A DNA stretch of 64,000 nt, taken from Candidatus Hydrothermarchaeota archaeon (GTDB lineage: Archaea > CAYFZR01). Every line of letters begins with the position of its first letter. The first letter of the stretch is position 1. The notes beneath the pieces are model-generated. The model saw nothing but the letters and a program-made list of their open reading frames with translations. It was not told where the DNA came from and did not search any database. The stretch is from NCBI GenBank assembly GCA_046760505.1, contig JBHIEG010000008.1, forward strand, positions 1 through 64,000. The letters are read 5' to 3'. The position numbers and the translations under genes were made by a program. Positions 6,459-24,355 of the stretch are shown here, piece after piece.

Positions 6459-6886
6459 ATGACCCTTGGAATTGATTCTTCGACTTTTTGCGTGCATTTT
6501 TCATCAAATGTTGTGCAGTCCTCTATCTCTATCGCATAAATAATAATGTCCTCAGGCATTCTTTCTTCCATGAGGATTCTTCCGGTTTCCAAGACAGTTG
6601 GTAAGTCCAAAACATGAGTTGATCTTATATTTTGTGATTTAGGAAGTTCTTGAGGCTTTAGCCTGTAAATTTCCCCAGGCTCTCCTTCTTCAGTCTTTAT
6701 CGCATCTACGATGATGACTCTTTGATAATCGATAATGAAATCAAGTAAATCTAATCCCGCAACGCTTGCTTCACTTACATAAATGTTATCTGGAAGATTT
6801 AATTCCCTCATTTTTCTTATTACATGAATTCCAACACCGTCATCTCTTAGAAGTGGATTTCCTATTCCAAGTATTAAAGTTTTCAT
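6419..6886 (-). CDS. [NiFe]-hydrogenase maturation protease (HycI/HybD family)
   Basis: LGIGNPLLRDDGVG, IIVDA, STH motifs; overlaps hypD stop. Confidence 0.93.
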   Translation of the reverse strand: MKTLILGIGNPLLRDDGVGIHVIRKMRELNLPDNIYVSEASVAGLDLLDFIIDYQRVIIVDAIKTEEGEPGEIYRLKPQELPKSQNIRSTHVLDLPTVLETGRILMEERMPEDIIIYAIEIEDCTTFDEKCTQKVEESIPRVIQLILDDLGIERM

Positions 6887-9638: not shown

Positions 9639-9809
9639 TTATCCACCACTTTCCATATAGAGTTACTTTATAAAAATTAAATATTAAATATAAGTTAGGT
9701 CAAAATTCCAATCTGTTTTTAATTCATATAATTTTTTTAATTTATATAACTCTATTCTATTACACTTTTATTCTATCATAATTTTTTCTTATATAATCCA
9801 TCATTATTG

Positions 9810-9828
9810 GATATAACTTCGTTATATC
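9810..9828. promoter_or_regulatory. Perfect inverted repeat GATATAAC-TTC-GTTATATC, candidate regulator site in the hypA/hdrA divergent region
   Basis: 8-bp arms, 3-nt spacer, seen directly; a related site lies at 4084-4101 upstream of hypF. Confidence 0.4.
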
Positions 9829-9891
9829 TTCTAAATATAATTATTTTTCATTTTAAAGCATTTTAAGAGCAGAAATTGTTATATACCCCTT

Positions 9892-9936
9892 TTAGTATAT
9901 ATTAATACGTGGAAACAGAGTTTGAGTATATACTAA
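9892..9936. promoter_or_regulatory. Two copies of near-palindrome TTAGTATATACTAA downstream of the putative hdrA TATA box
   Basis: TTAGTATATATTAA (9892-9905) and TGAGTATATACTAA (9923-9936), one mismatch each, 31 bp apart. Confidence 0.4.
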
Positions 9937-10006
9937 CAAAAACAAAAATACTACTGAATCATAACTGCTTTAGACTATTTTTTCATCTTTCTCCGGAGGT
10001 TTCATA

Positions 10007-11758
10007 ATGGAGCCCAAGATTGGAATTTATATTTGTAGGTGTGAAGGTGAGATCTCTAACGTAGTGGACGTAAGCGCAGTTGCAGATTTTGCAAGACAAT
10101 TGCCTAACGTAGTTTCAGTAAAAGAACTTGAAAGTCTCTGTTCATTTGAGGATCAGGTTTCCATGAAAAGAGATATCCAAAACGGAGTAGTAAATCGAGT
10201 TGTTTTAGCTGCATGTAGTCCCAGAATGTATGAAGTTCCGATTAAACAAGCAATCGAAGAAGCAGGATTGAACGTATATCTCTTCGAGAAGGCCAATATA
10301 AGGGAGCAATGTGCTTGGTCCCATTCAAACGTTCCTGATAAAGCGACTGAGAAAGCAAAGGCATTGGTTGCCAGTGCAGTGGCAAAGGTTAGGAATTCGG
10401 TAGAAAGAGAAGATCGAGAAATCAAAATTTTAGATAGAGCACTTGTGATTGGAGGGGGAGTGGCAGGATTAGAAGCAGCTTTGGATCTAGCAAATCAAGG
10501 ATTCTATACATATTTGGTTGAAAGAGAATCGGAACTTGGGGGAAGAGCATATAAACTGAGTATGACCTTCCCTACAACGAGCTGTGGAATATGCTGCATG
10601 CACTACTGTAAAGAATGCAGATTGACCCCAGGATTAATGGATGTTTACCTAAATCGAAATGTAGATGTTATGACCGACACAGAAGTTATAGGCGTAGACG
10701 GCTACGTTGGAAATTATCAAATAACTGTCAAGAACAGGAAAAGCGGAATGGTTAGAAAATTTGCGGTAGGAACAATTATAGTTGCAACAGGTTCTAAGAT
10801 CTATGATGCACGCAGAATTCCAGAGTATGGATACGGAGAGTACGAGGATGTTCTAACTATTCTAGATCTTGAACGGAGAATAGTTGAGGACAGGCTTAAA
10901 GGAAGAGTTTTAAGCAGACCATCTGACGGTAAAGTGCCAAAGGTTGTTAGTTTTATCCAGTGTGTTGGGTCCAGAGCAGAGAAAGGCGGAAATCCATATT
11001 GCTCATTGGTTTGCTGCAACTATGCATTAGGTCAGGCAAGCACGATTAAAAAAATGTATCCTGATTGTGACGTATACATATTCTACATTGACATAAGAGG
11101 CCCATACCGGGGTATAGAGGAGTTTTACGAAGAAGTTCGAGAGATGGGAGTCAAATTTGTAAGGGGTCGTGTAGCCAGAGTTGAAAAGGTAGGAGATAAA
11201 TTAGTTTTAAGCGCAGAAGATAAAGACCTCGGAGAGCAGGTACAGGTCGAATCAGATCTGGTTATTTTATCGGTTGGTCAAGAGCCTAATGATGGAACTC
11301 CTGAACTGGCCAAGATGCTGAATATTCCCTTAGGCCCTGATGGATTCTTCGAGGACTTAAATCTAGTACTTGAACCCGAAGAGAGAAGAGGAATATATCT
11401 AGCCGGATGTGCACAAGGTCCAAGAGGGATTAGATGGTCTGTTGCAGATGGAAGGATAGCGGCTTCCCATGCAGCAGCACTAATGTCCGAGGGAATTCTA
11501 AGGACTGAGGCCATTGTAGCATTGGTAGATGAAGATTCCTGCGGAGGATGCGGAATCTGCACGAGTGTATGTCCATACAACGTTCCCAAGCTTAAAGAAG
11601 TAAATGGAAGAAGGATTTCTGAGATCGCTCCAGTCTCATGTAATGGATGTGGCGTATGCGCTTCTGCATGTCCATCAGACGCTATCGATATGGAGAGTTA
11701 TCAGGAAAACCAAATACTGGCGCAGATAGAGGCGCTAGCCAAAATGGAGGTTAAATGA
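10007..11758 (+). CDS. hdrA: Heterodisulfide reductase subunit A-like flavoprotein (short variant)
   Basis: IGIYICRC, AACSP, NIREQCAW, VIGGGVAG FAD motif, CVGSR...YCS.VCC, C-terminal 2x[4Fe-4S] ferredoxin motifs. Confidence 0.93.
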   Translation: MEPKIGIYICRCEGEISNVVDVSAVADFARQLPNVVSVKELESLCSFEDQVSMKRDIQNGVVNRVVLAACSPRMYEVPIKQAIEEAGLNVYLFEKANIREQCAWSHSNVPDKATEKAKALVASAVAKVRNSVEREDREIKILDRALVIGGGVAGLEAALDLANQGFYTYLVERESELGGRAYKLSMTFPTTSCGICCMHYCKECRLTPGLMDVYLNRNVDVMTDTEVIGVDGYVGNYQITVKNRKSGMVRKFAVGTIIVATGSKIYDARRIPEYGYGEYEDVLTILDLERRIVEDRLKGRVLSRPSDGKVPKVVSFIQCVGSRAEKGGNPYCSLVCCNYALGQASTIKKMYPDCDVYIFYIDIRGPYRGIEEFYEEVREMGVKFVRGRVARVEKVGDKLVLSAEDKDLGEQVQVESDLVILSVGQEPNDGTPELAKMLNIPLGPDGFFEDLNLVLEPEERRGIYLAGCAQGPRGIRWSVADGRIAASHAAALMSEGILRTEAIVALVDEDSCGGCGICTSVCPYNVPKLKEVNGRRISEIAPVSCNGCGVCASACPSDAIDMESYQENQILAQIEALAKMEVK

Positions 11759-12291
11759 TGGCGGAAATTAAACTTCCGGTTAGATTAACGGAGAACGATC
11801 CAGGTTTTGTAGATGAAATCGTCAGGGCGGGAGGTCCCTTGGTATACAAATGCCTTCAGTGCGGAAGGTGTGCAGGGGATTGTCCTCTTGGCATAGAACC
11901 CCTCCATCATATTAGAAGACTGATAAAAATGGCTATTTATGGATTGAGAGAAAGAGTACTCTCCGATCCTGGAATCTGGAGATGTACCACCTGTCACACT
12001 TGCTGGGAAAGATGTCCCTTGGAAGTGAATCCTACCGACTTCGTAATCGCTCTCAGGAGGATACTTGCAAGAGAAGGTAATATTCCTGAATCTACAAAGA
12101 AAATTGCGAATAATATCGTAGCCACAGGGCATGCAGTAAATTTAGGAGAAGAACAGAAGAAAATTAGATCCTCTTTAGGCCTTGACCCTGTTCCTCCGAC
12201 CGCATTGTCGAATAAAGAAGCATTGAACGACCTTAAAGCCATTATCAAGAAGACAAAGGCAGATAAACTCATTGGATTCGGAGGTTATTAA
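11755..12291 (+). CDS. hdrC: Heterodisulfide reductase subunit C
   Basis: CLQCGRCAGDCP and WRCTTCHTCWERCP; located between hdrA and hdrB. Confidence 0.93.
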   Translation: MMAEIKLPVRLTENDPGFVDEIVRAGGPLVYKCLQCGRCAGDCPLGIEPLHHIRRLIKMAIYGLRERVLSDPGIWRCTTCHTCWERCPLEVNPTDFVIALRRILAREGNIPESTKKIANNIVATGHAVNLGEEQKKIRSSLGLDPVPPTALSNKEALNDLKAIIKKTKADKLIGFGGY

Positions 12292-13182
12292 ATGACCTAT
12301 GCACTCTTTTTAGGATGCATTGCGCCTTTAAGATATCCAGACATCGAAAAAGCAACTAGAATATCTCTAAAGAATTTGGGAATTGAAATCAAAGATATGG
12401 AAGGCGCTACCTGCTGTCCGGCAGGAGCATCCTTTAACTGTATTGACGAGATTACATCCCTCGCTATATCGGCAAGAAATCTATCTATAGCAGAGGAAAT
12501 GAAATGTGATGTAGTTACGATATGCAGCGGGTGCTTTTCTACTCTTAAAGAAGCAAACAAGAAACTTAGAGAGAATAATGAGAAAAGAAAATTGGTTAAT
12601 GAGGTTCTTGGCGAAATTGGAAGAGCATACAAAGGCAAAACGGAAATAAAACATCTTGTAGAATTATTATATGATGATGTAGGCATCGAAAGGATTAGAG
12701 ATTCAATTAAAAGACCTTTAAACGGTATTAAAATTGCACCACACTACGGATGCCATATACTAAGACCCTCCATATTTCTGGATGTAGACAATCCTGAAAA
12801 GCCCAGAAAGCTTGATGAATTAATCAATGCACTAGGTGCCAAAAGCTTATCATACCAACACAAATTGATGTGCTGCGGGGCAGGAGGAGGGCTCCGCGCA
12901 TATGACCATAATTTTGCAACGAGAATAGTAACCAGAAAATTAAATGCCATCAAAGAAGCTGGAGCCCATGCTATCGTAGACGTTTGTCCTTTCTGCCATC
13001 TTCAATTTGATGTATCTCAAGCAGAACTCAATGAAAAGAAAGGATACGAGTTTAAAATCCCTGTCTTTCATTATACACAATTACTCGCATTAGCCCAAGG
13101 AAATGATCCTAAAGAAATCATTAGCGTTTCAAAAATACCGAGAGAAAATATAATTAATAAAATTAAGGTAGAGGCGAAATGA
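12292..13182 (+). CDS. hdrB: Heterodisulfide reductase subunit B
   Basis: Two CCG domains: FLGC..TCCPA..CSGC and HYGCH..CCGAGGG..CPFCHLQFD. Confidence 0.95.
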   Translation: MTYALFLGCIAPLRYPDIEKATRISLKNLGIEIKDMEGATCCPAGASFNCIDEITSLAISARNLSIAEEMKCDVVTICSGCFSTLKEANKKLRENNEKRKLVNEVLGEIGRAYKGKTEIKHLVELLYDDVGIERIRDSIKRPLNGIKIAPHYGCHILRPSIFLDVDNPEKPRKLDELINALGAKSLSYQHKLMCCGAGGGLRAYDHNFATRIVTRKLNAIKEAGAHAIVDVCPFCHLQFDVSQAELNEKKGYEFKIPVFHYTQLLALAQGNDPKEIISVSKIPRENIINKIKVEAK

Positions 13183-13183
13183 A

Positions 13184-13603
13184 ATGGATGATTTCGAACC
13201 AAATATAATAGGTTTTTTGTGCAGATGGTGTTCTTATGCAGGAGCAGACCTCGCGGGAATAGACAGAATGCACTATCCTCCGAATGTAAGAGTTATCAGA
13301 GTTATGTGTTCAGGAAGAATAGATCCATTATTCGTTTTAGAGGCATTTAGACAGGGTATAGACGGCGTGTTAATAATGGGATGTCATCCGGATGAATGTC
13401 ATCATGTCTCTGGAAATCTCAAGGCACTCAAAAGAGTTACACTCCTAAAAAAATTGATGGAACAACTTGGATTAAATCCAAAAAGGCTGAGGCTTGACTG
13501 GATCTCTGCTTATGAAGGGGGTAAGTTTGCAAAGGTTTCAACTGAAATGGTTCAAGAGATAAAGAAAATAGGTCCAAATCCTTTAAAGGAGGATTTAAGA
13601 TGA
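13184..13603 (+). CDS. mvhD: F420-non-reducing hydrogenase [2Fe-2S] subunit D
   Basis: FLCRWCSYAGADLAG, RVMCSGR, GCHPDECH. Confidence 0.96.
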   Translation: MDDFEPNIIGFLCRWCSYAGADLAGIDRMHYPPNVRVIRVMCSGRIDPLFVLEAFRQGIDGVLIMGCHPDECHHVSGNLKALKRVTLLKKLMEQLGLNPKRLRLDWISAYEGGKFAKVSTEMVQEIKKIGPNPLKEDLR

Positions 13604-14586
13604 AAAATTCAGATAATAAACTCAAATTAGCAATAGGTCTTGGTGCTACCTGCTCTGGATGTGATATTGCACTCCTTGACATAAAGGAAAAAATCTTAGG
13701 CCTTCTCGAAATAGCCGACATAATTTTCTGGCCTACTGGAATGGATGGAAAACAAAGAGATCTCGAGAAAATGAGAGATGAGAGCATCGATATCGGAATA
13801 TACCATGGTTCGGTAAGAAATTCTGAAAATGAGGAAATAGCCAAGTTAATCAGAGAAAAATCCAAAATTCTGATAGCTTTTGGATCATGTGCATGCTACG
13901 GTGGAATTCCGGGTCTAGCTAATATATCAAACAAATCTGAAATATTTGAAATAGTTTACAAAAAAACAAAGTCTACTGTAAATCCTGAGTTTGTCACGCC
14001 TCAAAAAAACCTGAGTTTCAATGGAAGAATCCTTAGTTTGCCTGAGTTTTATGATACGGTAAGATCGCTTGATCAAACCGTCGAAGTTGATTACTATCTT
14101 CCTGGTTGTCCTCCTCCTGTTCAGTTAATAGAACTTGCTATTTCCGCTATAGCGAGCGGAGAATTACCTCCTAAAGGATCTGTAATAGCCTCAGATAAAT
14201 CCCTTTGTGAGGAATGTCCAAGGGAAATAGAAGACAAAAAAATCTCCTTTATACATAGAATTTATGAGATAGTTCCAGATCAAAAGAGATGTTTACTAGA
14301 ACAGGGAATTATTTGCTTAGGTCCTGCCACAAGAGGAGGCTGCGAGGCAAAATGTATCAAGGTGAATATGCCTTGCGAGGGATGTCTGGGCCCTTTACCA
14401 AACTTAAAGGATCAAGGAAGCTCTATTTTGAGTGCAATAGCATCTATACTTGCCGTTGAAGATGAAAAACAGTTGGCTGAAGATGAGTTGAAAAAGTTAG
14501 TTGAAAAGATCTTTGATCCCCTGGGTACATTCTATAGATTTACGCTTCCTGTTGCCCCCATTAATAGAAGGGTTGAGGATGGTTGA
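13600..14586 (+). CDS. mvhG: F420-non-reducing hydrogenase small subunit G
   Basis: TCSGCD, FGSCACYGG, PGCPP, CLLEQGIICLGPATRGGC. Confidence 0.94.
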   Translation: MKNSDNKLKLAIGLGATCSGCDIALLDIKEKILGLLEIADIIFWPTGMDGKQRDLEKMRDESIDIGIYHGSVRNSENEEIAKLIREKSKILIAFGSCACYGGIPGLANISNKSEIFEIVYKKTKSTVNPEFVTPQKNLSFNGRILSLPEFYDTVRSLDQTVEVDYYLPGCPPPVQLIELAISAIASGELPPKGSVIASDKSLCEECPREIEDKKISFIHRIYEIVPDQKRCLLEQGIICLGPATRGGCEAKCIKVNMPCEGCLGPLPNLKDQGSSILSAIASILAVEDEKQLAEDELKKLVEKIFDPLGTFYRFTLPVAPINRRVEDG

Positions 14587-16078
14587 AATGCCTAAGATAT
14601 TCGATGAGCCTGAGACAATTACTACAAGAAATATAACCATAAAGCCGATTACCCGCTTAGAAGGTCACGGAAAGATCGACATATTCCTAAACGATCAGGG
14701 AAACGTTAGGGACGCATACTTCCAAGTTGTTGAACTACGCGGTTTTGAAAGATTTTGCATAGGAAGACCTGTTGAAGAACTTCCCAGAATAACTCCAAGA
14801 ATATGTGGTGTTTGTCCCGGTCCCCATCACATGGCTTCTACGAAAGCAACTGATGCTGTATTTGGAGCAGAAGTACCAGAGCCGGCAAAGAAGTTAAGGG
14901 AACTTTACTACATGGCTCATATTATTCACAGCCACATAGCGCATTTCTATGTACTTGCTGCTCCTGACTTCATACTGGGTCCTGCAGAAGATCCAAGCAA
15001 AAGAAATATTGTAGGAGTGATAGAAGCAGTAGGAAAAGATACCGTTAACGATGTTATTACGCATAGAGCATATGCACAAAAGATTCAAGAGATAATAGGT
15101 GGTAGAGCAACACATTCTGTTTGCGGCCTGCCAGGGGGAATGTCTAAGGCAATAAGTGAGGAGGAAAGAAAAGAAATCGAAACGATGGCAAGATCTTGCG
15201 TTAACTTCTCGAGAAGATCTATCCAGATTTTTGAAGATTTGGTTCTCGGTAATGATACCTATGTAGATATTATTAAGGGAGACATATACAAGAATCAAAC
15301 ATATTACATGGGTCTTGTTGATGAAGAGAACAGGCTAAACCTGTATGATGGAAAGATAAGAGTTGTTGATCAGAAAGGAAATGAATTCACTAAATTTGAG
15401 GCAAAAGATTATTTGGAACATATCGCCGAGCATGTAGAGCCCTGGACCTATCTAAAGTTTCCATATCTAAAGGCTATCGGATGGAAAGGTCTAATCGATG
15501 GTCAGGAGAGTGGAGTATATAGAGTAGGACCTCTTGCAAGACTTAATGTAGCAGATGAAATTCCAACACCGCTTGCTCAAGAGGAATACGAGAAAATGAT
15601 TGAGATTCTTGGAGGAAAACCTGTTCATGCGACTCTTGCATATCACTGGGCAAGATTGATTGAACTGTTGTATGCAAGTGAGCGGTTGCATGAACTCTCA
15701 GTGGATCCAGAAATAACGAGTAATGATATTAGGGGAAAATTAGGCGAACCGAGCGAAGGAGTAGGCGTAATCGAGGCACCAAGAGGGACACTTTTCCATC
15801 ACTATATCACAGATGAAAGTGGTATCGTAAAAGAAATAAATTTAATAGTTGCGACAGGAAATAATAACGCTGCGATATGCATTTCGGTTAAAAAAGCAGC
15901 AGAATCTCTTATAAGAGACTGGAAGGTTAGTAACGGACTTTTAAATATGATAGAAATGGCTTTTAGAGCCTACGATCCTTGTTTCGCCTGCGCAACTCAT
16001 GCATTAGGTCGCATACCTCTAGATGTTCGGATATATGATAACGAAAAGAGATTGTTCAAAAGACTTACCAACTTTTGA
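14579..16078 (+). CDS. mvhA: Group 3c [NiFe]-hydrogenase large subunit A
   Basis: TRLEGHG, L1 RICGVC, EAPRG, L2 DPCFACATH plus cleavable extension; ATG at 14579 (ORF track 14501). Confidence 0.95.
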   Translation: MVEMPKIFDEPETITTRNITIKPITRLEGHGKIDIFLNDQGNVRDAYFQVVELRGFERFCIGRPVEELPRITPRICGVCPGPHHMASTKATDAVFGAEVPEPAKKLRELYYMAHIIHSHIAHFYVLAAPDFILGPAEDPSKRNIVGVIEAVGKDTVNDVITHRAYAQKIQEIIGGRATHSVCGLPGGMSKAISEEERKEIETMARSCVNFSRRSIQIFEDLVLGNDTYVDIIKGDIYKNQTYYMGLVDEENRLNLYDGKIRVVDQKGNEFTKFEAKDYLEHIAEHVEPWTYLKFPYLKAIGWKGLIDGQESGVYRVGPLARLNVADEIPTPLAQEEYEKMIEILGGKPVHATLAYHWARLIELLYASERLHELSVDPEITSNDIRGKLGEPSEGVGVIEAPRGTLFHHYITDESGIVKEINLIVATGNNNAAICISVKKAAESLIRDWKVSNGLLNMIEMAFRAYDPCFACATHALGRIPLDVRIYDNEKRLFKRLTNF

Positions 16079-16423
16079 TTATAACATGCTTTCTAGCTTT
16101 TCCTTGGCATCGTTCATCTCTAGACGTATCAAACCGATATTTACATCTCTGTCAGTGATTACCGCCAGTATGGCTTTTCCTACATCCAGCACGAGAATCT
16201 TACCGTTTTCGGCTTCTATCATTGCTTGAGTTAACTTACCTTGTCCGGTCCTTTCAGCGGACTTTTCCCCAGTACCAAAGATGGCTGCACTCATCGCTCC
16301 AATCATATCTCCATCCATCGATTTTGGGAGTGCATTAGCTATTAGTAAGCCATCCTTTCCAACGATGAGAGAGCCAACTATGCCGTCTACCTTGGTCAAA
16401 TCTGAGAGCACGACATCTATCAT
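16079..16423 (-). CDS. Roadblock/LC7 (MglB-like) protein
   Basis: GIVGSLIVGKDGLLIA...IGAMSAAIFGTGE...IEAENGKILV...NIGLIRLEM. Confidence 0.9.
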   Translation of the reverse strand: MIDVVLSDLTKVDGIVGSLIVGKDGLLIANALPKSMDGDMIGAMSAAIFGTGEKSAERTGQGKLTQAMIEAENGKILVLDVGKAILAVITDRDVNIGLIRLEMNDAKEKLESML

Positions 16424-16427
16424 AACA

Positions 16428-16931
16428 TCACCTCATGGCTTCCTCCAGTATCTTATCGATGAACTGTTCATCTGGATCTTTTAGTCTATATTTTTTCATA
16501 AGCGTCTTTCTATCAATTTCGAAGGCTCCAATCAACCTTTCAAAGAATTTTTTACATTCTGTTTTTAGGGAGCCGTTTCTCTGAATGAATGATAACGTTG
16601 TTTTGAAATTGGCTTCTTCAGGATCATATACTATAAATTCAAATTCTTCTTTTACATCTTCTACCAATTTTTCACCTGCAATATCTCCAACCAGTCCTCC
16701 GGCATCGGAATAAAATACTGATAGTGCTCTGCCTTCTTTGAATATTATCCAGACATCTCGATTGATACTTTTTTTAGGGAAAAATATCCGGAGATAACCA
16801 CTAAATTTATCTTTTCTCAGTTTCTTAAGTTTATTCACAAATTCGCAGGGATCGATAATTCTTTCTTCCTCTAATATATGGGATTTACTCATTACCCATG
16901 ATAAGTTTGAGAGATAGTCATTCTTCTTCAT
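16428..16931 (-). CDS. DUF2226-like protein
   Basis: FSGYLRI...IIFKEG core and C-terminal DRKTLMKKYRLKDPDEQFIDKILE resembling the DUF2226 tail; ATGA overlap with ferredoxin. Confidence 0.6.
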   Translation of the reverse strand: MKKNDYLSNLSWVMSKSHILEEERIIDPCEFVNKLKKLRKDKFSGYLRIFFPKKSINRDVWIIFKEGRALSVFYSDAGGLVGDIAGEKLVEDVKEEFEFIVYDPEEANFKTTLSFIQRNGSLKTECKKFFERLIGAFEIDRKTLMKKYRLKDPDEQFIDKILEEAMR

Positions 16932-17176
16932 CTCATCCTCTCTATCATTTTAATTGCATTTGTATCCCAGTAATATACCTTTACCTCCACTGTTTCATTA
17001 AAGTCTATGGCTTCTGCGGGACATCTATCAATGCAATTCAAACAAATTATGCAGTCTTCCTTCCTCTTTATATCAGGAACATCATCCTCGTTTTTTTCAA
17101 ACACTGTGGTTGGACAAATATCTACGCATATGTTGCATTTTTTACAAAGGTCTTTGTCTATGAAGATTTCAGGCAT
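16928..17176 (-). CDS. 2x[4Fe-4S] ferredoxin with C-terminal extension
   Basis: CKKCNICVDICP and CIICLNCIDRCP. Confidence 0.92.
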   Translation of the reverse strand: MPEIFIDKDLCKKCNICVDICPTTVFEKNEDDVPDIKRKEDCIICLNCIDRCPAEAIDFNETVEVKVYYWDTNAIKMIERMR

Positions 17177-18596
17177 TATTTACCTCCTTTGAATATCTTT
17201 TAATGTAATGCAAATTCCCCTCGTGGTCAAATATTTCGATTTCACTACAAAATCTGCCTATTCTATGTGTAGCACATGAGAGACAAGGATCATGGGCTCT
17301 GACTGCAATTTCTATTAGATTTAACTTATTTTCATCCACTTTGCCGTCGCTGATTGCTTTTCTAGAAGCGTCTAAAATTGCCTGATTAATCGCCTTGTTG
17401 TTAATCTGCGTAGCCACTATTATATTCGCCCCCTTTATCCTACCCTTTTCATCTATCTCATAATGATGTATTAAAGTACCTCTAGGTGCCTCAACATGAC
17501 CTATTCCCACATTTTTGTACTCTCCTATATCTGCCCTGTATTCTCCATTCAAATCCTCAGATGATAGTTCTAGAGCCTTTTCAGATGCATACAACAACTC
17601 TATGAGCCTAGCATAATGATAAAGTAGAGTTGCGTGAGCCGGTCTCCCATAAGTCTCTCTAAAAATCTCAAGTTCTTCCTGTGCTCTTGGAGTTTCCATT
17701 TTTTCAGTAAGATTTATCCTAGCAAGTGTATTGACTCTAAAAGTGCCATTTTCATAGCCCGCTTTCTTATAGTAGGGGAACTTCATATACGTCCATTTTT
17801 CAGCCCTCTCTGCGATGAATTCAATATAATCTTGAGTCTTGAATTTCTCAATCAAATTGCCTTCAGGATCCATTATACAAAGGTCTCCTTCATAATAATT
17901 CATGCAGCCATTTTTTAGGGTTCCAAGGAAGTATGTTTCAAAGACTGCTAAATTTTCAATTAATTCATTGTACTTCTCAAATATACCTTTTCCTAATTCT
18001 AAAGTGAATTCTGCTAGATCTAAGGATTCTTTTGCGAGTTCTCTAACCTTTAATAAGGTTTTTTCATCTGGTAAATTTGCAACTCCGCCAGGAACAGCTA
18101 CGATTGGATGTATTTGCTGACCGCCGAGTAATTTGTTAATTGTCTGACCATTACTCCTTAATTTAAGGGCTTTTTTTGCCAATTCAGGTTGTTTTTTCGC
18201 AATACCTAAAACATTTCTCTCCTCGCTTGGAGAATCCGGACCCATTATAAAATCAGGTCCAGCCAGAATGAAAAAAGAAAGTGCATGACTGTGAATCATA
18301 TGACCAAGGTACATCAATTCTCTAATTTTTTTTGCTGTTTCAGGGATTTCAACATCAAATAAATCATCCACAGCTTTTGCGCTTGCTAGATGATGGGCTG
18401 AAGGACAAACACCACATATTCTTGGAGTTATTCTCGGCATTTCCTCAACACGATAACCTTCCAAAAATTTTTCAAACCCTCTAAGTTCCATGACTTGGAA
18501 TCTGGCATCGTTTACTTCCCCTTTATCATCTAAGAAGAGAGAAACTTTGGCATGGCCTTCAATTCTTGTTACAGGCTCAATAACAATTTTTTTCAT
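17169..18596 (-). CDS. Second [NiFe]-hydrogenase large subunit (group 3c/MvhA-like)
   Basis: TRIEGHA, L1 RICGVC, EAPRG, L2 DPCLSCATH plus extension. Confidence 0.93.
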   Translation of the reverse strand: MKKIVIEPVTRIEGHAKVSLFLDDKGEVNDARFQVMELRGFEKFLEGYRVEEMPRITPRICGVCPSAHHLASAKAVDDLFDVEIPETAKKIRELMYLGHMIHSHALSFFILAGPDFIMGPDSPSEERNVLGIAKKQPELAKKALKLRSNGQTINKLLGGQQIHPIVAVPGGVANLPDEKTLLKVRELAKESLDLAEFTLELGKGIFEKYNELIENLAVFETYFLGTLKNGCMNYYEGDLCIMDPEGNLIEKFKTQDYIEFIAERAEKWTYMKFPYYKKAGYENGTFRVNTLARINLTEKMETPRAQEELEIFRETYGRPAHATLLYHYARLIELLYASEKALELSSEDLNGEYRADIGEYKNVGIGHVEAPRGTLIHHYEIDEKGRIKGANIIVATQINNKAINQAILDASRKAISDGKVDENKLNLIEIAVRAHDPCLSCATHRIGRFCSEIEIFDHEGNLHYIKRYSKEVNNA

Positions 18597-19507
18597 AACT
18601 CCTTCACCATCATTATTCTTGGCTTGGCAAGCATTATTTTTGAAGCAGCTGTAAATGTGTAAGGCATCTTTGAAGCCTCTTTCATGTGGTTAATCACTTC
18701 TTCTAGTTCTATATTTGTTATGGCACTAACTAGTTCAGCTAGAGAATAACCAACATCCTTGAATGGATTTTTCAATATTTTCTCTGATGGTCCATTACAT
18801 CCATTGCAAGGGATACCGTTGCTCGGACATTTTGCATTGCATCCGCCCATTGTAACGGATCCCATGCAGATCAATCCATGGCTTATCAAGCATTTCTCAT
18901 CGGTTATTTTCCCCTCATAACTTCTTCTCAATCTATCTAACTCAACCCTTTCCATGATTCGATTACACTCAGAACAAACGGTTTTTCTTTTTTCTCCTTT
19001 TTTATTCTCTATTACATTAGATATTGCAGTTACTATGTTCTCAGGTGTGGGGGGGCAACCAACTATGTAGAAATCCACATCCACTACTTCATCTAACGTC
19101 TTAACACTTCTTGTTAGTTCTGGCAAACCTTCTTCTTCACTCGGACACACTCCAGTATATTCAGCAGTTACAACGTCCCTATAAACTTTCTTTTTCAATT
19201 CATCAGGAGGATAAAGTCCTCCAAGCGAGAATAAACCTCCATGACAGGCACATGTACCAAATGCAATTAGTGTATCTGCCTTCTCTCTCATTATCTTGGC
19301 TTTTTCTTCGTTTTCTGAATTTCTTATGCACCCACTCACTATGGCAACGTCACACTTAGGAAGTTCTTTTATGTCCATAAGTACTGGAGAATAAACGACT
19401 TCTACCTGTTCTAGGAGAGATAATAGATTTTCATCTAAGTCTAGGATTCCGATCTCGCATCCCCCGCAGATTGCTAACCATTCTGTTGCCAATGTCAATT
19501 TTGACAT
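18593..19507 (-). CDS. Second [NiFe]-hydrogenase small subunit (MvhG-like)
   Basis: ICGGCE, FGTCACHGG, GCPP, CSEC, CLISHGLICMGSVTMGGCNAKCP..GIPCNGCNGP; no Tat signal. Confidence 0.92.
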   Translation of the reverse strand: MSKLTLATEWLAICGGCEIGILDLDENLLSLLEQVEVVYSPVLMDIKELPKCDVAIVSGCIRNSENEEKAKIMREKADTLIAFGTCACHGGLFSLGGLYPPDELKKKVYRDVVTAEYTGVCPSEEEGLPELTRSVKTLDEVVDVDFYIVGCPPTPENIVTAISNVIENKKGEKRKTVCSECNRIMERVELDRLRRSYEGKITDEKCLISHGLICMGSVTMGGCNAKCPSNGIPCNGCNGPSEKILKNPFKDVGYSLAELVSAITNIELEEVINHMKEASKMPYTFTAASKIMLAKPRIMMVKEL

Positions 19508-19981
19508 TTAATCCTCCTCAAAGATCAATTTTTTTAGACAGGCGTTTATTCCCGCCTTCTCAATCTCTAAATCAACTCTTTTCCCTAGAACTACACCAAG
19601 TGCTCCAACAATGTACCCATGAGTCAAATAACAAAGTATCCCTTCTTGTTCAATTCCTTCTCTCATTAGAGTATTCCTGATGGGACAATGTCTGAATACT
19701 AGCTCACAACACAATCTCCCATCTTCGTCGATAAACATATATTCATCTCTTTCACTTCTTTTAAAAAGTTCAATTTCCCATGCACCTTCAAATAGCCTGC
19801 TAATCTCATCAATTGCTTCATTCAGATCTTCTGTTCTTCTAGCCTTAGATGCAAGCTCAATTCCAAGGGATTTTCCCGAATTATAGCTCATTGACTTTGC
19901 CCCAAAGCCGAGAGTATCCTCCAATGACGTAGCAAAACTACCCAAAATCGTCATTAGGAAATGGGTATCTTTTTCTATCAT
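19508..19981 (-). CDS. V4R / methanogen output domain (MetOD1)-like protein
   Basis: GKSLG helix motif, FRHCPIR...ILCYLTHGYIVGAL...ACLKKL three-Cys pattern. Confidence 0.7.
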   Translation of the reverse strand: MIEKDTHFLMTILGSFATSLEDTLGFGAKSMSYNSGKSLGIELASKARRTEDLNEAIDEISRLFEGAWEIELFKRSERDEYMFIDEDGRLCCELVFRHCPIRNTLMREGIEQEGILCYLTHGYIVGALGVVLGKRVDLEIEKAGINACLKKLIFEED

Positions 19982-20023
19982 TTTGCTTTACCCCATTTTA
20001 TTTTACCCTTTTTATCCTGCTCT

Positions 20024-20467
20024 TTACTCTACTTTCTTCACACATTTTTCATTAGTCTCAACTATCTTCACATCTCTCTTTTCATTGGTAAGATGGCTCA
20101 ATGTTCCCGCAATGATACCATTTACCAAAAAACAAGGTGCTCCTCCTTTTTCAACACCTCTTTCTTTAAGAGCATTACCAAGCGGGCAGGAATTAATTTT
20201 TAGAGTTATGCTTCCTTCATCTGACTCTATTTGATAGTCTTTTAACCCTATTATATCTAACAACTCTTTTATTTGTTCCAAAATATTTTCTTTAGTTATC
20301 AGTCTTGAATATCTCTCCCCATATCTTTTACTTGATTGATAACAAATTCCCTTGCCACCAGCCCCTATAAGATCCTCTACCGTCTCATCCACTGCTGTTA
20401 TAAGTATTTTAAGTGCCTCATGCATTCTTGCATAATCATCCTCATCAGGAGTTACGTGGAGAATCAC
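20024..20467 (-). CDS. Second V4R / MetOD1-like protein (GTG start at 20467; ORF track 20566)
   Basis: INSCPLG...APCFLVNGIIAGTL...EKCVKK; TATA-like AAAGTATATAAAA about 35 nt upstream of the GTG. Confidence 0.65.
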   Translation of the reverse strand: MILHVTPDEDDYARMHEALKILITAVDETVEDLIGAGGKGICYQSSKRYGERYSRLITKENILEQIKELLDIIGLKDYQIESDEGSITLKINSCPLGNALKERGVEKGGAPCFLVNGIIAGTLSHLTNEKRDVKIVETNEKCVKKVE

Positions 20468-20692
20468 CGTTATCCCTTTATAATTTAATATAATGAGTTT
20501 TATATACTTTATCTCAACGATTATGGTTAAAATCCTCAAAAATATAGCGCTTATTTTCAATATCAAGAAATAAAATTACAAAGTAGTAATTATTTCCATT
20601 GAAGTATGTGAAATAACATTTAAGAATCAGTAAAAATAAAAACAAAAGATTCAAATTCCATAAAAGTATAGTAAGATGTGCTGGTGAAGGAA

Positions 20693-21400
20693 ATGAAGCA
20701 ATCAAACTTAAATACCGCGGAAGAATGGACTGAGAAGGGATACTCCTTTGAAAAGGATGGCTTGTTTGAAAAAGCAGTTGAATGTTATGATAAAGCGTTA
20801 GAGATCGATTCCAATTATGCAAAGGCATGGAATAATAAGGGAACCTCTCTTTTTACATTGAGAAAGTTTGGAGAAGCAATAAGATGTCTTGACAAGGCCT
20901 TAGAAATAGATCCAGATTATGCTGAGGCATGGAATAATAAAGGGATATGTCTTTTTTCCCTAAGAATGTTCGATGAAGCACTTAAATGCTTTGATAAAGC
21001 GCTGGAAATCGATCCAGAATCGCCAAACGTTTGGTTAAATAAAGGCAATGTCCTGCAAAACATGGGTAAGTACGATCAAGCCATAACATCATACGATATG
21101 GCTCTGAAATTAAATCCAAACTTGAAATGGGCATGGAGCAGTAAGGGATACACCCTCCATGGCATTGGTAATTTGAAGGAGGCAATAATCTGCTACGAAA
21201 AAGCCTTGGAGTTAGATCCCAAGCTTGCTGGAGTATGGAACAACAAGGGACTTGCTCTGAAGGATTTGGGCAGGTTGGAAGAGGCTTTAGAATGCTTCAA
21301 CAATGTTTTAGAGCTTGAACCCTCCCTCACTGTTGCCAAAGCTAATAGAGATATGGTATTAGACCTTATCAAGAAACGAGAAAAATACAGAGTTGATTAA
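20693..21400 (+). CDS. Tetratricopeptide repeat protein (about 6 TPRs)
   Basis: Repeated AWNNKG...A..C.DKALE.DP 34-aa units; GGTGA RBS before ATG 20693. Confidence 0.92.
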   Translation: MKQSNLNTAEEWTEKGYSFEKDGLFEKAVECYDKALEIDSNYAKAWNNKGTSLFTLRKFGEAIRCLDKALEIDPDYAEAWNNKGICLFSLRMFDEALKCFDKALEIDPESPNVWLNKGNVLQNMGKYDQAITSYDMALKLNPNLKWAWSSKGYTLHGIGNLKEAIICYEKALELDPKLAGVWNNKGLALKDLGRLEEALECFNNVLELEPSLTVAKANRDMVLDLIKKREKYRVD

Positions 21401-21402
21401 TA

Positions 21403-23184
21403 CTAAGCCTCTTCTTTCCTAACTTCCTCTACTCTCTTCAACTGTGCCCTGTACATCTCAACTATTTCCTCTACGCTCGTTGCTTCATTTGGTCCTTTGT
21501 CTATTCTCCATCTACCGGTAAATCTTGGAAATCTAACTGCAATCCCCGAATCCTCCCTGATTCTTCCAAATGCACATGTGTGAACAGGACTTAGTGTAAG
21601 CTCATCTCCTATTATCTCCATTACCAAATTTGGCTCAAACCAAACATCCGCCTCGAGTTCACTCTCCACGCTTGGATGTTTCTCGTCGATTTTATACGGG
21701 AGAAGCATCTCTGGAATTTTTTCCAGATCATCATCGGTAAAGCCGCTGCCAACCTTACAAACAGTATAAAACTTTTGTTCTTCTCTATCAATGACGCCTG
21801 TTAATAATGCTCCATAAGTACCTGATCTTTTTCCTCTACCTACAAAAGCTCCAACAACAACGACATCTATGGGTTCGATCATCATGGATTGATAAGAACG
21901 TTTTAGTTTGATCCAGAGCCATCCTCTTGCTCCGGCTTGGTAGACTCCGTCCAATGATTTCAGTATAAGTCCTTCACAGCCGGATGCAACTGCAAGTTCA
22001 AAGAAATTTTCAATTTCTTTGGGATCATCTGTAATTAAGGATTTTGCACATCTTATCCGTGTATTTTCTTTAACAATGCTTTTAAGTCTATTTCTTCTAT
22101 CCATGTAACTTTTTTGTGTCAGATCTTCTCCGTCTATGTAGAGTAGATCAAACAGATATAGGCTTATTGGAAATTTTTCCTTTGCCTCCTCAATTCCGTG
22201 TTTCCTTCTTCTGTGCATAAGCTGCTGGAAGGGCAGTAAATCTTCTGTATCAGGATCTACCGCAACACACTCCCCTTCTATAATTGCGTCTCTTGCCGTT
22301 ATATTTTTTTTAATCAGTTCGCTCACGTCAGGGTATTGATTTGTGATATTCTCAAGTCTTCTTGAGAAAAGAGCAATATTGTCTTTATTTTTATGTATCT
22401 GGATCCTCTCCCCATCGTATTTCCATTCACAAGCAGCTTTTCCACCAAGTTTTTCAAGAACCTCTTCTGGCGTAACAAGTCTTTGAGCCATCATCATTCT
22501 TATCGGTCTTCCAACCTTTACATGGTAGTTTCTCATTCCCTCAAGACCTTCTCTTGCTAGGGTCTTGGCTACGTCACCAAGATCCGATGTCAAGTTGTAT
22601 GCCCTCTCAATGAGTTCTCTGTTCGCTTTATCATTGGTATACGCAATCGAAAGTGCATCTAGGATTGTCATATCTGCTATACCAAGTCTTAGTTTTCCTA
22701 GAACTGCTCTTATAATGTATTTTGCCTCTTTTGGCGTTGCATCCGCCAATAAACCGGATAAAAGCCTTATCTTTAAATCTACACTTCCTGGACCCGTCGA
22801 TCTCGCTATCTTATCAAATGTCTCATAAACTTCCTTTACCGTTAAAGGCTTTGCGAAAAGAGTAGACTGCTTTTTACTTTTTGCTAGATGTTCAGCCGTT
22901 AAACCCAGGTCTCCTCTTTTCTTGAGATCCTTCTCTATTTCCTTAGTGCTGACACCAAATGCACCCGATATGGCACGAATAGCAAGTTTCTCTGCGATGC
23001 CCATTTCTAAATCCACGAAATCTGGATAAAGCTTTCCCTGAGTGAGATATGCGACCTTGTCTACAATATCTTCATCGCACTTTTTGAATAAATCTACCAA
23101 GTAATCGGTCATTTCAAGTCTTTTCGTAGTTGACTCTATGTGCTCATATACAGCTACCAACTCTGAATATTTCAAATGGGACAC
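21403..23184 (-). CDS. lig: ATP-dependent DNA ligase (archaeal replicative type)
   Basis: Motif I EWKYDGERIQ, EGLILK, WIKLK, VRFPRF; N-terminal DNA-binding domain. Confidence 0.97.
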   Translation of the reverse strand: MSHLKYSELVAVYEHIESTTKRLEMTDYLVDLFKKCDEDIVDKVAYLTQGKLYPDFVDLEMGIAEKLAIRAISGAFGVSTKEIEKDLKKRGDLGLTAEHLAKSKKQSTLFAKPLTVKEVYETFDKIARSTGPGSVDLKIRLLSGLLADATPKEAKYIIRAVLGKLRLGIADMTILDALSIAYTNDKANRELIERAYNLTSDLGDVAKTLAREGLEGMRNYHVKVGRPIRMMMAQRLVTPEEVLEKLGGKAACEWKYDGERIQIHKNKDNIALFSRRLENITNQYPDVSELIKKNITARDAIIEGECVAVDPDTEDLLPFQQLMHRRRKHGIEEAKEKFPISLYLFDLLYIDGEDLTQKSYMDRRNRLKSIVKENTRIRCAKSLITDDPKEIENFFELAVASGCEGLILKSLDGVYQAGARGWLWIKLKRSYQSMMIEPIDVVVVGAFVGRGKRSGTYGALLTGVIDREEQKFYTVCKVGSGFTDDDLEKIPEMLLPYKIDEKHPSVESELEADVWFEPNLVMEIIGDELTLSPVHTCAFGRIREDSGIAVRFPRFTGRWRIDKGPNEATSVEEIVEMYRAQLKRVEEVRKEEA

Positions 23185-23230
23185 CTAAGAAATATTTTTA
23201 TCAAATTAGGTAATACTCTTTTTGGTTGAC

Positions 23231-24355
23231 ATGGAATTAATAGAAGATCGTGTACTCCTGTTACTCTCGATTAAAGAAAAAGGCAAAAAAATTAGCATTG
23301 ATCACATTGCTGAAAAAGTAATACGCGACGAAAAAAACTGCATAAATGAATCGCAAATAAAAGATGCAATAGATCGTCTTATCTCCAAAGGACTCATCAG
23401 CGAGAGTAACAAAAATTATTATGCAACAGAAAGAGGAATTCAAGAGATAAAAGAGAGAGTAAAATCGATTGGAAATAAACTCAATCTCTCCTATCGTATG
23501 ATTTTAACAGCAAAGGAATATTATCCCCAGATCGCTGATGCAATAATTCCTTTTTTAAAAGAAAGAGCAACAAGTGTTGTAAAGATTTTTAGCGATGAAA
23601 AAGATCCTGTTAATAAAATTAAGCCTTTATTTGTAAGATATGCAAAGTATAAGCCTAAACCAGTAAATATTCAAATAAATAATACCAAAGATTTAATTAA
23701 ATACGTGGAAAGCCACGCGATAGACTTCATACCCTATATACATAGGATTAATACTAAAGATCCTGATTGGTTCGTCTTGGATTTAGATGCTGGTCCCTCC
23801 TTTGATAAACATGAAAGAGGCTTTTACTTAGTTAAATTGACCGCCAAAAAGTTAGTAGAGACTCTAGAAGAATATGAAATATCCTCTTGTATAAAGTTTA
23901 GTGGATCCAGAGGTATCCAAGTATGGTCGAGTCTGGAGAACAGTAAATTGCCCTCAGGAGATATATTCTCGCTTTATAGAAAATTTGCGCAACAAATTCA
24001 GACAAAATTGGAGGAAAAATTACAGGAGTTACCCTCAAAAACCCTTAAAGAGTTCTACGAAATTGTAAAGACAGGAAAACCTATAACCACCTCTACAGTC
24101 GCGAAAAAAGCCGAAAGATCTGATCAAATCTTAATCGACTGGAGCACGATGAAGCCATCCGGCGACGTAAGAGCCCCTTTTAGCCTGCACTATAAAACTA
24201 CCTTGGTTTCTTGCCCAATAGATCCAAAACGCCTGCTCCTGTTTGAATTATCAGAGGCAAGAACTGAAAATGTTGTGGATAATCTGGAGAGGTTAATCGA
24301 CATATTCAAACTGGAAAAATCTGATCCTTCTCAAATCATAAAAGAAGTATCATAA
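23231..24355 (+). CDS. LigD-type primase-polymerase (AEP) domain protein with N-terminal winged-helix-like region
   Basis: PDWFVLDLDAG (DxD), KFSGSRGIQV, ILIDW...RAPFSL..VSCPI motifs; in-frame TTG at 23222 is an alternative start. Confidence 0.75.
   Translation: MELIEDRVLLLLSIKEKGKKISIDHIAEKVIRDEKNCINESQIKDAIDRLISKGLISESNKNYYATERGIQEIKERVKSIGNKLNLSYRMILTAKEYYPQIADAIIPFLKERATSVVKIFSDEKDPVNKIKPLFVRYAKYKPKPVNIQINNTKDLIKYVESHAIDFIPYIHRINTKDPDWFVLDLDAGPSFDKHERGFYLVKLTAKKLVETLEEYEISSCIKFSGSRGIQVWSSLENSKLPSGDIFSLYRKFAQQIQTKLEEKLQELPSKTLKEFYEIVKTGKPITTSTVAKKAERSDQILIDWSTMKPSGDVRAPFSLHYKTTLVSCPIDPKRLLLFELSEARTENVVDNLERLIDIFKLEKSDPSQIIKEVS

Follow-up and report, generated by a model that had tools for sequence, protein, structure and literature searches.

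Among described [NiFe]-hydrogenases, those closest to the one considered here belong to the cytoplasmic MvhAGD-HdrABC systems of methanogens (group 3c; PDB 5odc). A second point of reference, alike in concept only, is HoxBC-HoxJ of Ralstonia/Cupriavidus (group 2b), whose soluble NiFe heterodimer has signalling proteins, and no energy-conserving partner, encoded beside it. Where a signalling gene next to Mvh genes is concerned, the closest precedent is bacterial, namely the Mvh cluster of Geobacter sulfurreducens, in which Mvh-type hydrogenase genes are annotated together with a methyl-accepting chemotaxis protein, 'MvhV', and not with V4R or Roadblock proteins (PMC7894505). For archaea, Kaster et al. 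2011 (PMC3087415) report that two Methanothermobacter type genomes encode five hydrogenases, that no sensory hydrogenase of the Ralstonia type is encoded, and that no H2 sensor was found in Methanothermobacter. Here we describe a cluster of seven genes from a Candidatus Hydrothermarchaeota archaeon, located at positions 16079-20467 of the window (the whole 64,000-nucleotide (nt) stretch that was analysed, positions 1 to 64,000 of contig JBHIEG010000008.1, assembly GCA_046760505.1). Judged by gene content and conservation, the seven genes appear to constitute one accessory module of a conserved archaeal type, in which a hydrogenase is coupled to V4R, Roadblock and DUF2226 proteins instead of MvhD and heterodisulfide reductase (Hdr) subunits.

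An earlier reading of this DNA from its letters (the original prediction) had taken the cluster for an H2- or redox-sensing operon of seven co-oriented genes with tight junctions. In the open reading frame (ORF) listing of the window, seven consecutive co-directional ORFs indeed run from 20467 to 16079 on the minus strand, and their coordinates give exactly the spacings it had named: in 5' to 3' order, the first two genes are separated by 42 nt and the next pair abuts without a gap, then come overlaps of 4, 8 and 4 nt, and 4 nt separate the last two genes. The genes and their upstream region, with lengths in amino acids (aa), are as follows.

20468-20650, minus strand: upstream non-coding region, absent from the sister species G001 along with the genes; holds a putative TATA-like stretch
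20024-20467, minus strand: V4R-like protein a (V4Ra), 147 aa, GTG start; paralogue of V4Rb, matched by the family profile
19508-19981, minus strand: V4R-fold protein b (V4Rb), 157 aa; AlphaFold2 model and Foldseek; conserved C99, C117 and C148
18593-19507, minus strand: [NiFe]-hydrogenase small subunit HydS, MvhG-like, 304 aa; Pfam Oxidored_q6, NCBIfam VhuG, 5odc_E
17169-18596, minus strand: [NiFe]-hydrogenase large subunit HydL, MvhA-like, 475 aa; Pfam NiFeSe_Hases, NCBIfam VhuA, 9sw2_F and 5odc_F
16928-17176, minus strand: ferredoxin (Fdx), 82 aa; Pfam Fer4 families, two CxxCxxCxxxCP motifs
16428-16931, minus strand: DUF2226 protein, 167 aa, putatively PatA_N/PATAN-like by predicted structure; Pfam DUF2226, Atlas structure neighbours
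16079-16423, minus strand: Roadblock/LC7 (MglB-like) protein, 114 aa; Pfam Robl_LC7, PDB relatives

Compared with MvhAGD-HdrABC, HydS and HydL have their nearest solved relatives in that system and share its NiFe ligands and its 12 iron-sulfur (FeS) cysteines; the difference lies in their company, for the cluster and 80 related loci lack MvhD and Hdr, the partners being instead ferredoxin, V4R, Roadblock and DUF2226. Unlike HoxBC-HoxJ and HupUV, HydSL is of the group 3 Mvh type, as judged by its best family and PDB matches rather than by a direct comparison with group 2b, and the archaeal cluster further differs from HoxBC-HoxJ in having no histidine kinase, a 31-residue extension on the large subunit, and V4R, Roadblock and PATAN-like partners. 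With the MglA/MglB and conservon (CvnA-D) modules it shares a Roadblock protein related to MglB and CvnB and a DUF2226 protein that may resemble PatA_N/PATAN in structure, and the same genome holds a GTPase cluster (contig C44); in contrast to those modules, the hydrogenase cluster and the 80 loci have no GTPase, and relatives have an archaeal MinD. We know of no hydrogenase in MglA/MglB or conservon modules. The V4R proteins share the fold of PoxR/DmpR/MopR and TRAPPC3/Bet3, with conserved cysteines in what may be the Zn-binding region, but unlike PoxR, DmpR and MopR the cluster's V4R family is stand-alone, 147-187 aa long, and without an AAA+ or DNA-binding output. The original prediction had also named Geobacter as a possible precedent, which is right as far as the annotation of the Mvh cluster with MvhV goes; a function for MvhV is not shown in the accessible part of that source (PMC7894505). 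In the literature searched, which did not extend to subscription journals or supplements, there was no description of V4R, Roadblock or DUF2226 linked to a hydrogenase; 'DUF2226' was not mentioned there, and the publications naming both V4R and hydrogenase were, by title, not on this link.

The module recurs in other genomes. Because HydL has no close orthologue, relatives were approached from the V4R side: metagenome contigs were scanned with a five-sequence V4R alignment, a retrieval blind to neighbouring genes, and the best 80 of 161 relatives were used. Neighbour counts are given per locus with room on the contig, and many of the 80 loci are near-duplicates; dereplication at 85% large-subunit identity left 21 linked representatives. 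Directly 3' of the V4R gene stood a HydS homologue at 73 of 73 loci (median gap 13 nt), followed by a HydL homologue (63/63) and then a Roadblock homologue (57/58), and a ferredoxin homologue lay directly 5' of the V4R gene at 74 of 75. MvhD, HdrA, HdrB and HdrC (E<1e-6) were found within about 8 kb at none of the 80 loci. A second Roadblock-domain protein recurs in the related loci, as do an archaeal MinD (32/80; TIGR01969, 338 bits, no cysteine) and a 224-aa DUF2226-like protein (33/80), and the latter two genes are placed either 5' of the ferredoxin or after the second Roadblock gene. The DUF2226 likeness is a lead only: for the 224-aa and 628-aa proteins of locus L113 it comes from Atlas feature scores only, and when aligned by hhalign with the profile of the DUF2226 paralogues they fell short of significance (E 0.045 and 0.14, probability about 1%). 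The MinD-like neighbour was considered as an FeS carrier and rejected as such, as it has no cysteine and scores above the threshold for archaeal MinD. In a group of Methanobacterium-type loci (L080 (415-756), L097, L115, L121, L140-L143 and L147), the best Roadblock match (47-49% identity) lies about 6.5-7.8 kb 5' of the cluster and is a separate gene, not one fused after HydL.

In a sample of 401 archaeal species genomes, a member of the V4R family (E<=1e-8) occurred in 20 and stood beside HydS in 11, the window's genome counted, in varying gene orders. Six genomes of the f57 family and genome G104 have the order Fdx-V4R-HydS-HydL, with a HycI protease gene 5' of the ferredoxin in G104 and likewise in metagenome locus L074. 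Two f11 genomes, G379 and G034, have V4R(-V4R)-HydS-Fdx-HydL, accompanied by a divergent Roadblock gene in G379, while the operon of G034 continues with a coiled-coil protein, MinD, Roadblock and then DUF2226 (Pfam E 2.7e-11). In genome G217 the order is a fused V4R-V4R, HydS, HydL and Fdx. The MinD proteins of related clusters score 338-370 bits against TIGR01969, and no kinase was found among the seven genes or in the annotated related loci. By its gene content, the window's cluster is a rearranged member of this recurring gene set, closest in content to the f11 clusters.

In its own lineage the cluster is present or absent as a whole. The sister species G001, of the same genus, lacks exactly window positions 16079-20650 (4,572 bp, the seven genes plus the upstream region); it aligns to window 9780-16078 at 81% and to 20651-24000 at 78% nucleotide identity, with the two blocks 8 bases apart on one contig, about 55 bp between the MvhA stop and the start of the TPR gene, and one large-subunit match only. 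Because G001 is syntenic on both flanks yet lacks exactly that stretch, 16079-20650 is a single presence/absence unit. This, together with the reappearance of the gene set in archaea that are not related, shows that the arrangement did not come about by chance alone. Nor is the join an assembly artefact, because DNA contigs bridge both junctions: in four runs of one study of a hydrothermal vent metagenome, two of which may be the source of the assembly, the left junction is bridged in 4/4 and the right in 3/4, the fourth run's contig breaking at a polymorphic spot near 20476-20496. Recent horizontal transfer was considered and is unsupported, the composition being native-like: GC content is 0.369 for the cluster and 0.382 for the genome, and the tetranucleotide distance lies within the range of random windows, 37% of which are as far or farther. 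Because the composition is native-like and the GTDB phylum comprises two genomes, gain and loss of the cluster cannot be polarised. The lineage is very isolated, with two species genomes of one genus making up the whole phylum in GTDB r232.

At the 5' end of the cluster, the start of V4Ra is best placed at the GTG at 20467, and the public protein set also has the 147-aa form. A putative TATA-like A/T-rich stretch, read by eye, lies at 20510-20498, 31-43 nt 5' of this GTG. Population variation occurs close to it, at 20476-20496: a contig of run X2 has a 1-base deletion at 20495, and run X3 has a G>A change plus alternative short contigs. Two further features of the window lie outside the cluster.

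10007-16078, plus strand: HdrA-HdrC-HdrB-MvhD-MvhG-MvhA operon; Pfam; convergent with the cluster
6443-6829, minus strand: HycI-family hydrogenase maturation protease; PF01750, 69.7 bits

The first of these is the complete Mvh-Hdr system that the original prediction had placed next door, and it stops one base short of the Roadblock stop codon. The computed start of its MvhA ORF (14501-16078) is a TTG at 14501, which would give an 86-nt overlap with mvhG; other large subunits are similar to it only from 14627 on, so the real start is probably a Met codon near 14580. On the other side, at 21403-24355, lies a divergent gene pair: the minus strand encodes an ATP-dependent DNA ligase (593 aa), the plus strand a LigD-type primase-polymerase (377 aa) with an N-terminal winged-helix match. 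The pair resembles non-homologous end joining systems, here in an archaeon.

The enzyme itself has every ligand of a working hydrogenase. HydS matches Pfam Oxidored_q6 (100.7 bits) and HydL NiFeSe_Hases (125.1 bits); the best NCBIfam models are VhuG for HydS (232.5 bits, under the equivalog cut-off of 450) and VhuA for HydL (428.7 bits, under the cut-off of 800), and the nearest solved structures are MvhG 5odc_E (E 1.3e-72) and MvhA 9sw2_F and 5odc_F (E about 1e-128), respectively. In a 22-row alignment that includes canonical MvhA, the NiFe ligands C61, C64, C438 and C441 and residue H444 of HydL, which fall in the motifs RICGVC (59-64) and DPCLSCATH (436-444), are invariant, as are the 12 HydS cysteines of three [4Fe-4S] clusters, common also to the window's own MvhG; the claim of intact NiFe and FeS ligands thus stands. 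So does the claim that neither MvhD nor Hdr nor a diaphorase is encoded in the operon, and that membrane anchor and Tat signal are missing too; a simple scan found no twin-arginine motif and no 19-residue stretch with a mean Kyte-Doolittle hydropathy >1.74. Placed by family models, PDB matches and trees, the hydrogenase appears to be a soluble enzyme of the MvhAG type, group 3c-like.

HydL and the neighbouring MvhA, 44% identical, are the only two NiFe large subunits in the genome, and a PF01750 search of the genome returned a single HycI-type protease, that at window 6443-6829. The closest homologue of HydL is 53-54% identical (best of 8000 scored matches among 5.8 billion clusters), and a search of genome contigs gave 25 distant, mostly bacterial loci at <=40% identity. 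Two f11 relatives have short V4R-linked large subunits, of 405 aa in G379 (L175, C10 10122-11339) and 390 aa in G034 (L176, C18 9809-10981), and the G379 subunit stops exactly at DPCLSCASH, without a C-terminal extension. An in-frame TGA is reported in the large-subunit match of G034. Between the two large-subunit genes of the window there is a 32-nt exact inverted match (18403-18434 against 14786-14817), at the ...RITPRICGVCP motif, which breaks the unitigs of all four runs at 18403-18434; a palindrome there was rejected in favour of this inverted-orientation match to the paralogous mvhA motif, which may be due to chance under strong codon bias or to a small gene-conversion tract.

Two V4R-like proteins had been predicted, and at the level of fold, as seen in the V4Rb model, this holds; neither protein reaches the Pfam V4R threshold (PF02830), V4Ra scoring 16.2 bits (E 0.012; cut-off 31) and V4Rb giving no match even at E<=10. 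The two are paralogues (27% identity, E 3e-12). The AlphaFold2 model of V4Rb, built from an alignment of 25 relatives, has a predicted local distance difference test score (pLDDT) of 95.0 and a predicted template modelling (TM) score of 0.87, and in Foldseek it comes closest to the V4R domains with which PoxR, DmpR and MopR sense phenol (E about 5e-6, TM about 0.63, probability 1.0), with further matches to Thor-TRAPPC3, Bet3-family proteins and the V4R protein MJ1460; V4Rb is accordingly modelled with the two-layer alpha/beta fold of V4R/TRAPPC3 proteins. Across the V4R family C99 and C117 are invariant and C148 is present in at least 90% of rows, apparently in the same region as the Zn-binding cysteines of the PoxR and TRAPPC3 proteins. 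According to PMC10933270, the cysteines of PoxR and Thor-TRAPPC3 bind structural Zn and the fold forms ligand cavities. A profile of the V4R paralogues found 66 proteins at E<=1e-3 among 1.84 billion representatives, a small distinct family whose members are mostly annotated 'hydrocarbon binding protein (contains V4R domain)' and come from sources named Methanobacterium, Methanobacteriaceae, Methanothermobacter, Methanomicrobiales, Methanoculleus and Thorarchaeota, and from one Desulfotalea metagenome-assembled genome.

The ferredoxin motifs CKKCNICVDICP and CIICLNCIDRCP are two CxxCxxCxxxCP motifs, which mark it as the bacterial 2x[4Fe-4S] type. The Roadblock protein matches Pfam Robl_LC7 with 65.2 bits (cut-off 23), has the Asgard Roadblock 7yh1_D (E 2.5e-15), CvnB5 and MglB as PDB relatives, and shows 43% identity to the Roadblock gene by the V4R-hydrogenase cluster of G379 and 44% to its counterpart in G034. 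The DUF2226 protein, which has five paralogues in the genome, matches Pfam DUF2226 partially (25.8 bits, cut-off 22; profile positions 131-176), and a word-based homologue search returned the protein itself alone. Neighbours of its Atlas model are DUF2226 clusters and PatA_N/DUF4388 (PATAN) clusters at TM 0.54-0.64, a comparison of predicted models that serves as a lead only; Pfam PatA_N (PF14332) gave no match, and the AlphaFold2 model from an alignment of 6 paralogues is poor (pLDDT 57). PATAN genes are found near mglA and mglB, and PATAN and MglB neighbour MglA GTPases, according to PMC4316618. With V4R fold, Roadblock and DUF2226 all found, the signalling-type character given to the partners by the original prediction is confirmed. 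Elsewhere these domains accompany small GTPases or MinD-type ATPases. Taken together, the partners suggest NTPase-switch and ligand-sensing parts.

The same partners occur elsewhere in this genome, as a tblastn search with the seven cluster proteins followed by Pfam revealed. On contig C5 (24724-26533), a DUF2226 protein (170 aa), a Roadblock protein (123 aa) and a fused V4R-V4R protein (323 aa; V4R 65.7 bits) are encoded on one strand, without a hydrogenase. The minus strand of contig C44 (4190-8332), again without a hydrogenase, has GTPase genes at both ends of a module, one Arf-like (376-aa ORF) and one Arf/Ras-like (175 aa). Between them are encoded a GAF-PAS-V4R protein of 510 aa, a Roadblock protein of 130 aa and a V4R protein. 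In total, four Arf-like matches lie in the genome outside the hydrogenase cluster. Given these two modules, the second with sensor domains and small GTPases, V4R, Roadblock and DUF2226 form a recurring set in this organism. From the conserved neighbourhood and the use of the same partner set elsewhere, it follows that the hydrogenase is wired to NTPase-switch-type proteins rather than to MvhD/Hdr. As side observations, the fused V4R-V4R protein of C5 has a weak MetOD1 match too and its module has an NFACT gene for a neighbour; C5 also holds, at 19407-19886 by a radical SAM gene, a V4R-family paralogue of 159 aa that stands alone and is conserved in G001; and the C44 cluster is conservon-like, with a MinD homologue about 2.7 kb off (799-1509).

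The phylogeny of the large subunits bears on how this partnership is kept. A FastTree tree of 114 large subunits gathers the methanogen-type enzymes linked to V4R and Roadblock into a single 20-member clade (support 99), separate from those linked to MvhD. In an IQ-TREE tree of 47 rows (posterior mean site frequency model, quick search), V4R-linked enzymes fall in at least three lineages, and HydL belongs to a supported 16-row set, unresolved internally, that also takes in L074/G104, the clade of its own genome's MvhA and sequences whose context is unknown. The approximately unbiased (AU) test rejects a tree uniting all 18 linked rows (delta log likelihood 43.5, p=0.016), for a group that was named after the first tree was seen and that contains one very long branch. 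The original prediction had proposed to examine the clade of the large subunit at 17169-18596; HydL has no close orthologue with which it would make up such a clade. Because the linked large subunits are not one clade, the V4R-hydrogenase link has persisted, or arisen anew, across lineages of the enzyme. Either it is ancient and was lost time and again, or it has more than one origin; in both cases selection maintains it.

We consider it the most likely reading, though at somewhat less than even odds, that the module is an H2/redox input device, that is, a sensor. In its specific form, this reading takes the cluster for the first archaeal hydrogen sensor, in which V4R subunits read the redox state of an Mvh-type enzyme and an NTPase switch (MinD or a Ras/Arf-like GTPase) receives it by way of Roadblock and PATAN-like proteins, and to this we assign a probability of roughly 0.35. 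The HydSL heterodimer would equilibrate with H2 and load the ferredoxin as well as its own FeS chain. As extra subunits of the enzyme, one or more V4R proteins would report its state; because V4R is always encoded directly before the small subunit, it probably sits on the enzyme. Roadblock and DUF2226 would then relay this state to an NTPase switch encoded elsewhere, candidates being the Arf/Ras-like GTPases of contig C44 or a MinD as in the related clusters, and through this switch H2 would govern behaviour, cell polarity or gene expression. Of this mechanism, complex formation, the direction of information flow and the output are inferred parts; what the sequences do establish is the gene content, the folds, the intact metal ligands, the cluster's behaviour as a unit and its conserved neighbourhood.

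A number of observations weigh against a sensor, and several of them speak at the same time for a metabolic alternative, in which the cluster encodes a ferredoxin-coupled soluble isoenzyme (H2 + oxidised ferredoxin <-> reduced ferredoxin) that V4R gates by binding a small effector and that Roadblock, DUF2226 and, in relatives, MinD scaffold or position, so that the hydrogenase would be the output or cargo. The catalytic and FeS ligands are all as in a working enzyme and indistinguishable from those of metabolic Mvh, and no alignment column separates V4R-linked from MvhD-linked large subunits (17 versus 9 rows, 85% consensus), so that the 'repurposing' of the original prediction is not visible in the enzyme, the catalytic subunit apparently having no common 'sensor' signature. 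The large subunits of group 2b sensory hydrogenases are not known to have a C-terminal extension or to undergo proteolytic maturation. HydL, with 31 residues after H444, has such an extension, and relatives G104 and L074 have a dedicated HycI protease gene inside the cluster; both are traits of matured metabolic enzymes. The dedicated ferredoxin, present at nearly every related locus with room for it (74/75), suits electron delivery to metabolism as well as sensing.

Other points concern the signalling side. The conserved V4R cysteines may, by analogy, simply bind structural Zn as they do in PoxR and Thor-TRAPPC3, and the relay through V4R thiols that had been proposed is doubtful on the same ground (PMC10933270). 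The window's cluster has no output domain (kinase, DNA-binding domain or GTPase), and the module is dispensable between sister species. A homologue of the C44 small GTPase occurs at 0/80 related loci; the linkage expected from the original prediction is therefore consistent, seen from the V4R side, for V4R and Roadblock and fails for small GTPases and kinases, and neither of its suggested outputs, GTPase or KaiC, is in the cluster, the recurrent NTPase neighbour being archaeal MinD. The latter, a member of a family of positioning ATPases, fits a positioned isoenzyme, as do the coiled-coil protein of G034 and the tight V4R-HydS spacing, which suggests stoichiometric subunits. On the other hand, when H2 is low, its use to reduce low-potential ferredoxin is thermodynamically unfavourable unless bifurcation or ion coupling comes to its aid (PMC3087415), which makes a plain uptake role hard to see; H2 evolution would need a reason for such elaborate partners, and the same partner set is used elsewhere in the genome with sensor domains and GTPases. 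We treat the gated isoenzyme as tentative but nearly as probable as the sensor.

A more conventional account would have HydSL as an MvhAG isoenzyme that docks in trans on the MvhD/HdrABC encoded next door, the accessory genes being unrelated passengers. In favour of this, MvhA and MvhG are the nearest proteins of solved structure, the cluster directly adjoins a complete HdrACB-MvhDGA operon, and four of the five other genomes that carry the cluster also have MvhD somewhere. Yet MvhD and Hdr are missing from the vicinity of all 80 related loci, the 99%-complete genome G217 has the cluster and no MvhD was found in it, and the accessory genes have been kept with the hydrogenase through rearrangements and across non-sister lineages, as passengers would not be; we regard this account as unlikely.

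BchJ-type V4R proteins are thought to carry tetrapyrrole intermediates. Least probable of all is an H2-dependent reductase for a small hydrophobic molecule, with V4R holding the substrate and electrons arriving from HydSL via ferredoxin: V4R is a cavity-forming ligand-binding fold with phenol-binding PoxR, DmpR and MopR as top structural matches and palmitate-binding TRAPPC3 as a further relative (PMC10933270), and it always directly adjoins HydS, but no recognisable reductase or catalytic domain stands beside the hydrogenase, no ligand is known, and Roadblock, DUF2226 and MinD would be left unexplained.

How methanogens and other H2-dependent archaea perceive H2 is an open question, for which the cluster offers a concrete and widespread candidate gene set, one that source annotations place in Methanobacterium, Methanothermobacter, Methanoculleus and other lineages. 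By its conserved neighbourhood, the Mvh-type hydrogenase described here appears to have a new conserved partnership, for which the sensor interpretation is plausible. Should the module turn out to be an enzyme that is regulated or positioned, three points would still stand. Mvh-type hydrogenases have, next to MvhD/Hdr, a second set of conserved partners; tallies of 'group 3c' genes in genomes as bifurcating Mvh-Hdr will come out too high; and a redox enzyme serves as client or input for V4R, Roadblock, PATAN and MinD proteins, the prokaryotic kin of components that regulate GTPases and traffic in eukaryotes. The module is shared by Methanobacteriales, Methanomicrobiales, Thorarchaeota-like and other archaea, and if it is a sensor, it would tie H2 metabolism to the Roadblock/TRAPP/GTPase toolkit later put to use by eukaryotes in trafficking and nutrient sensing.

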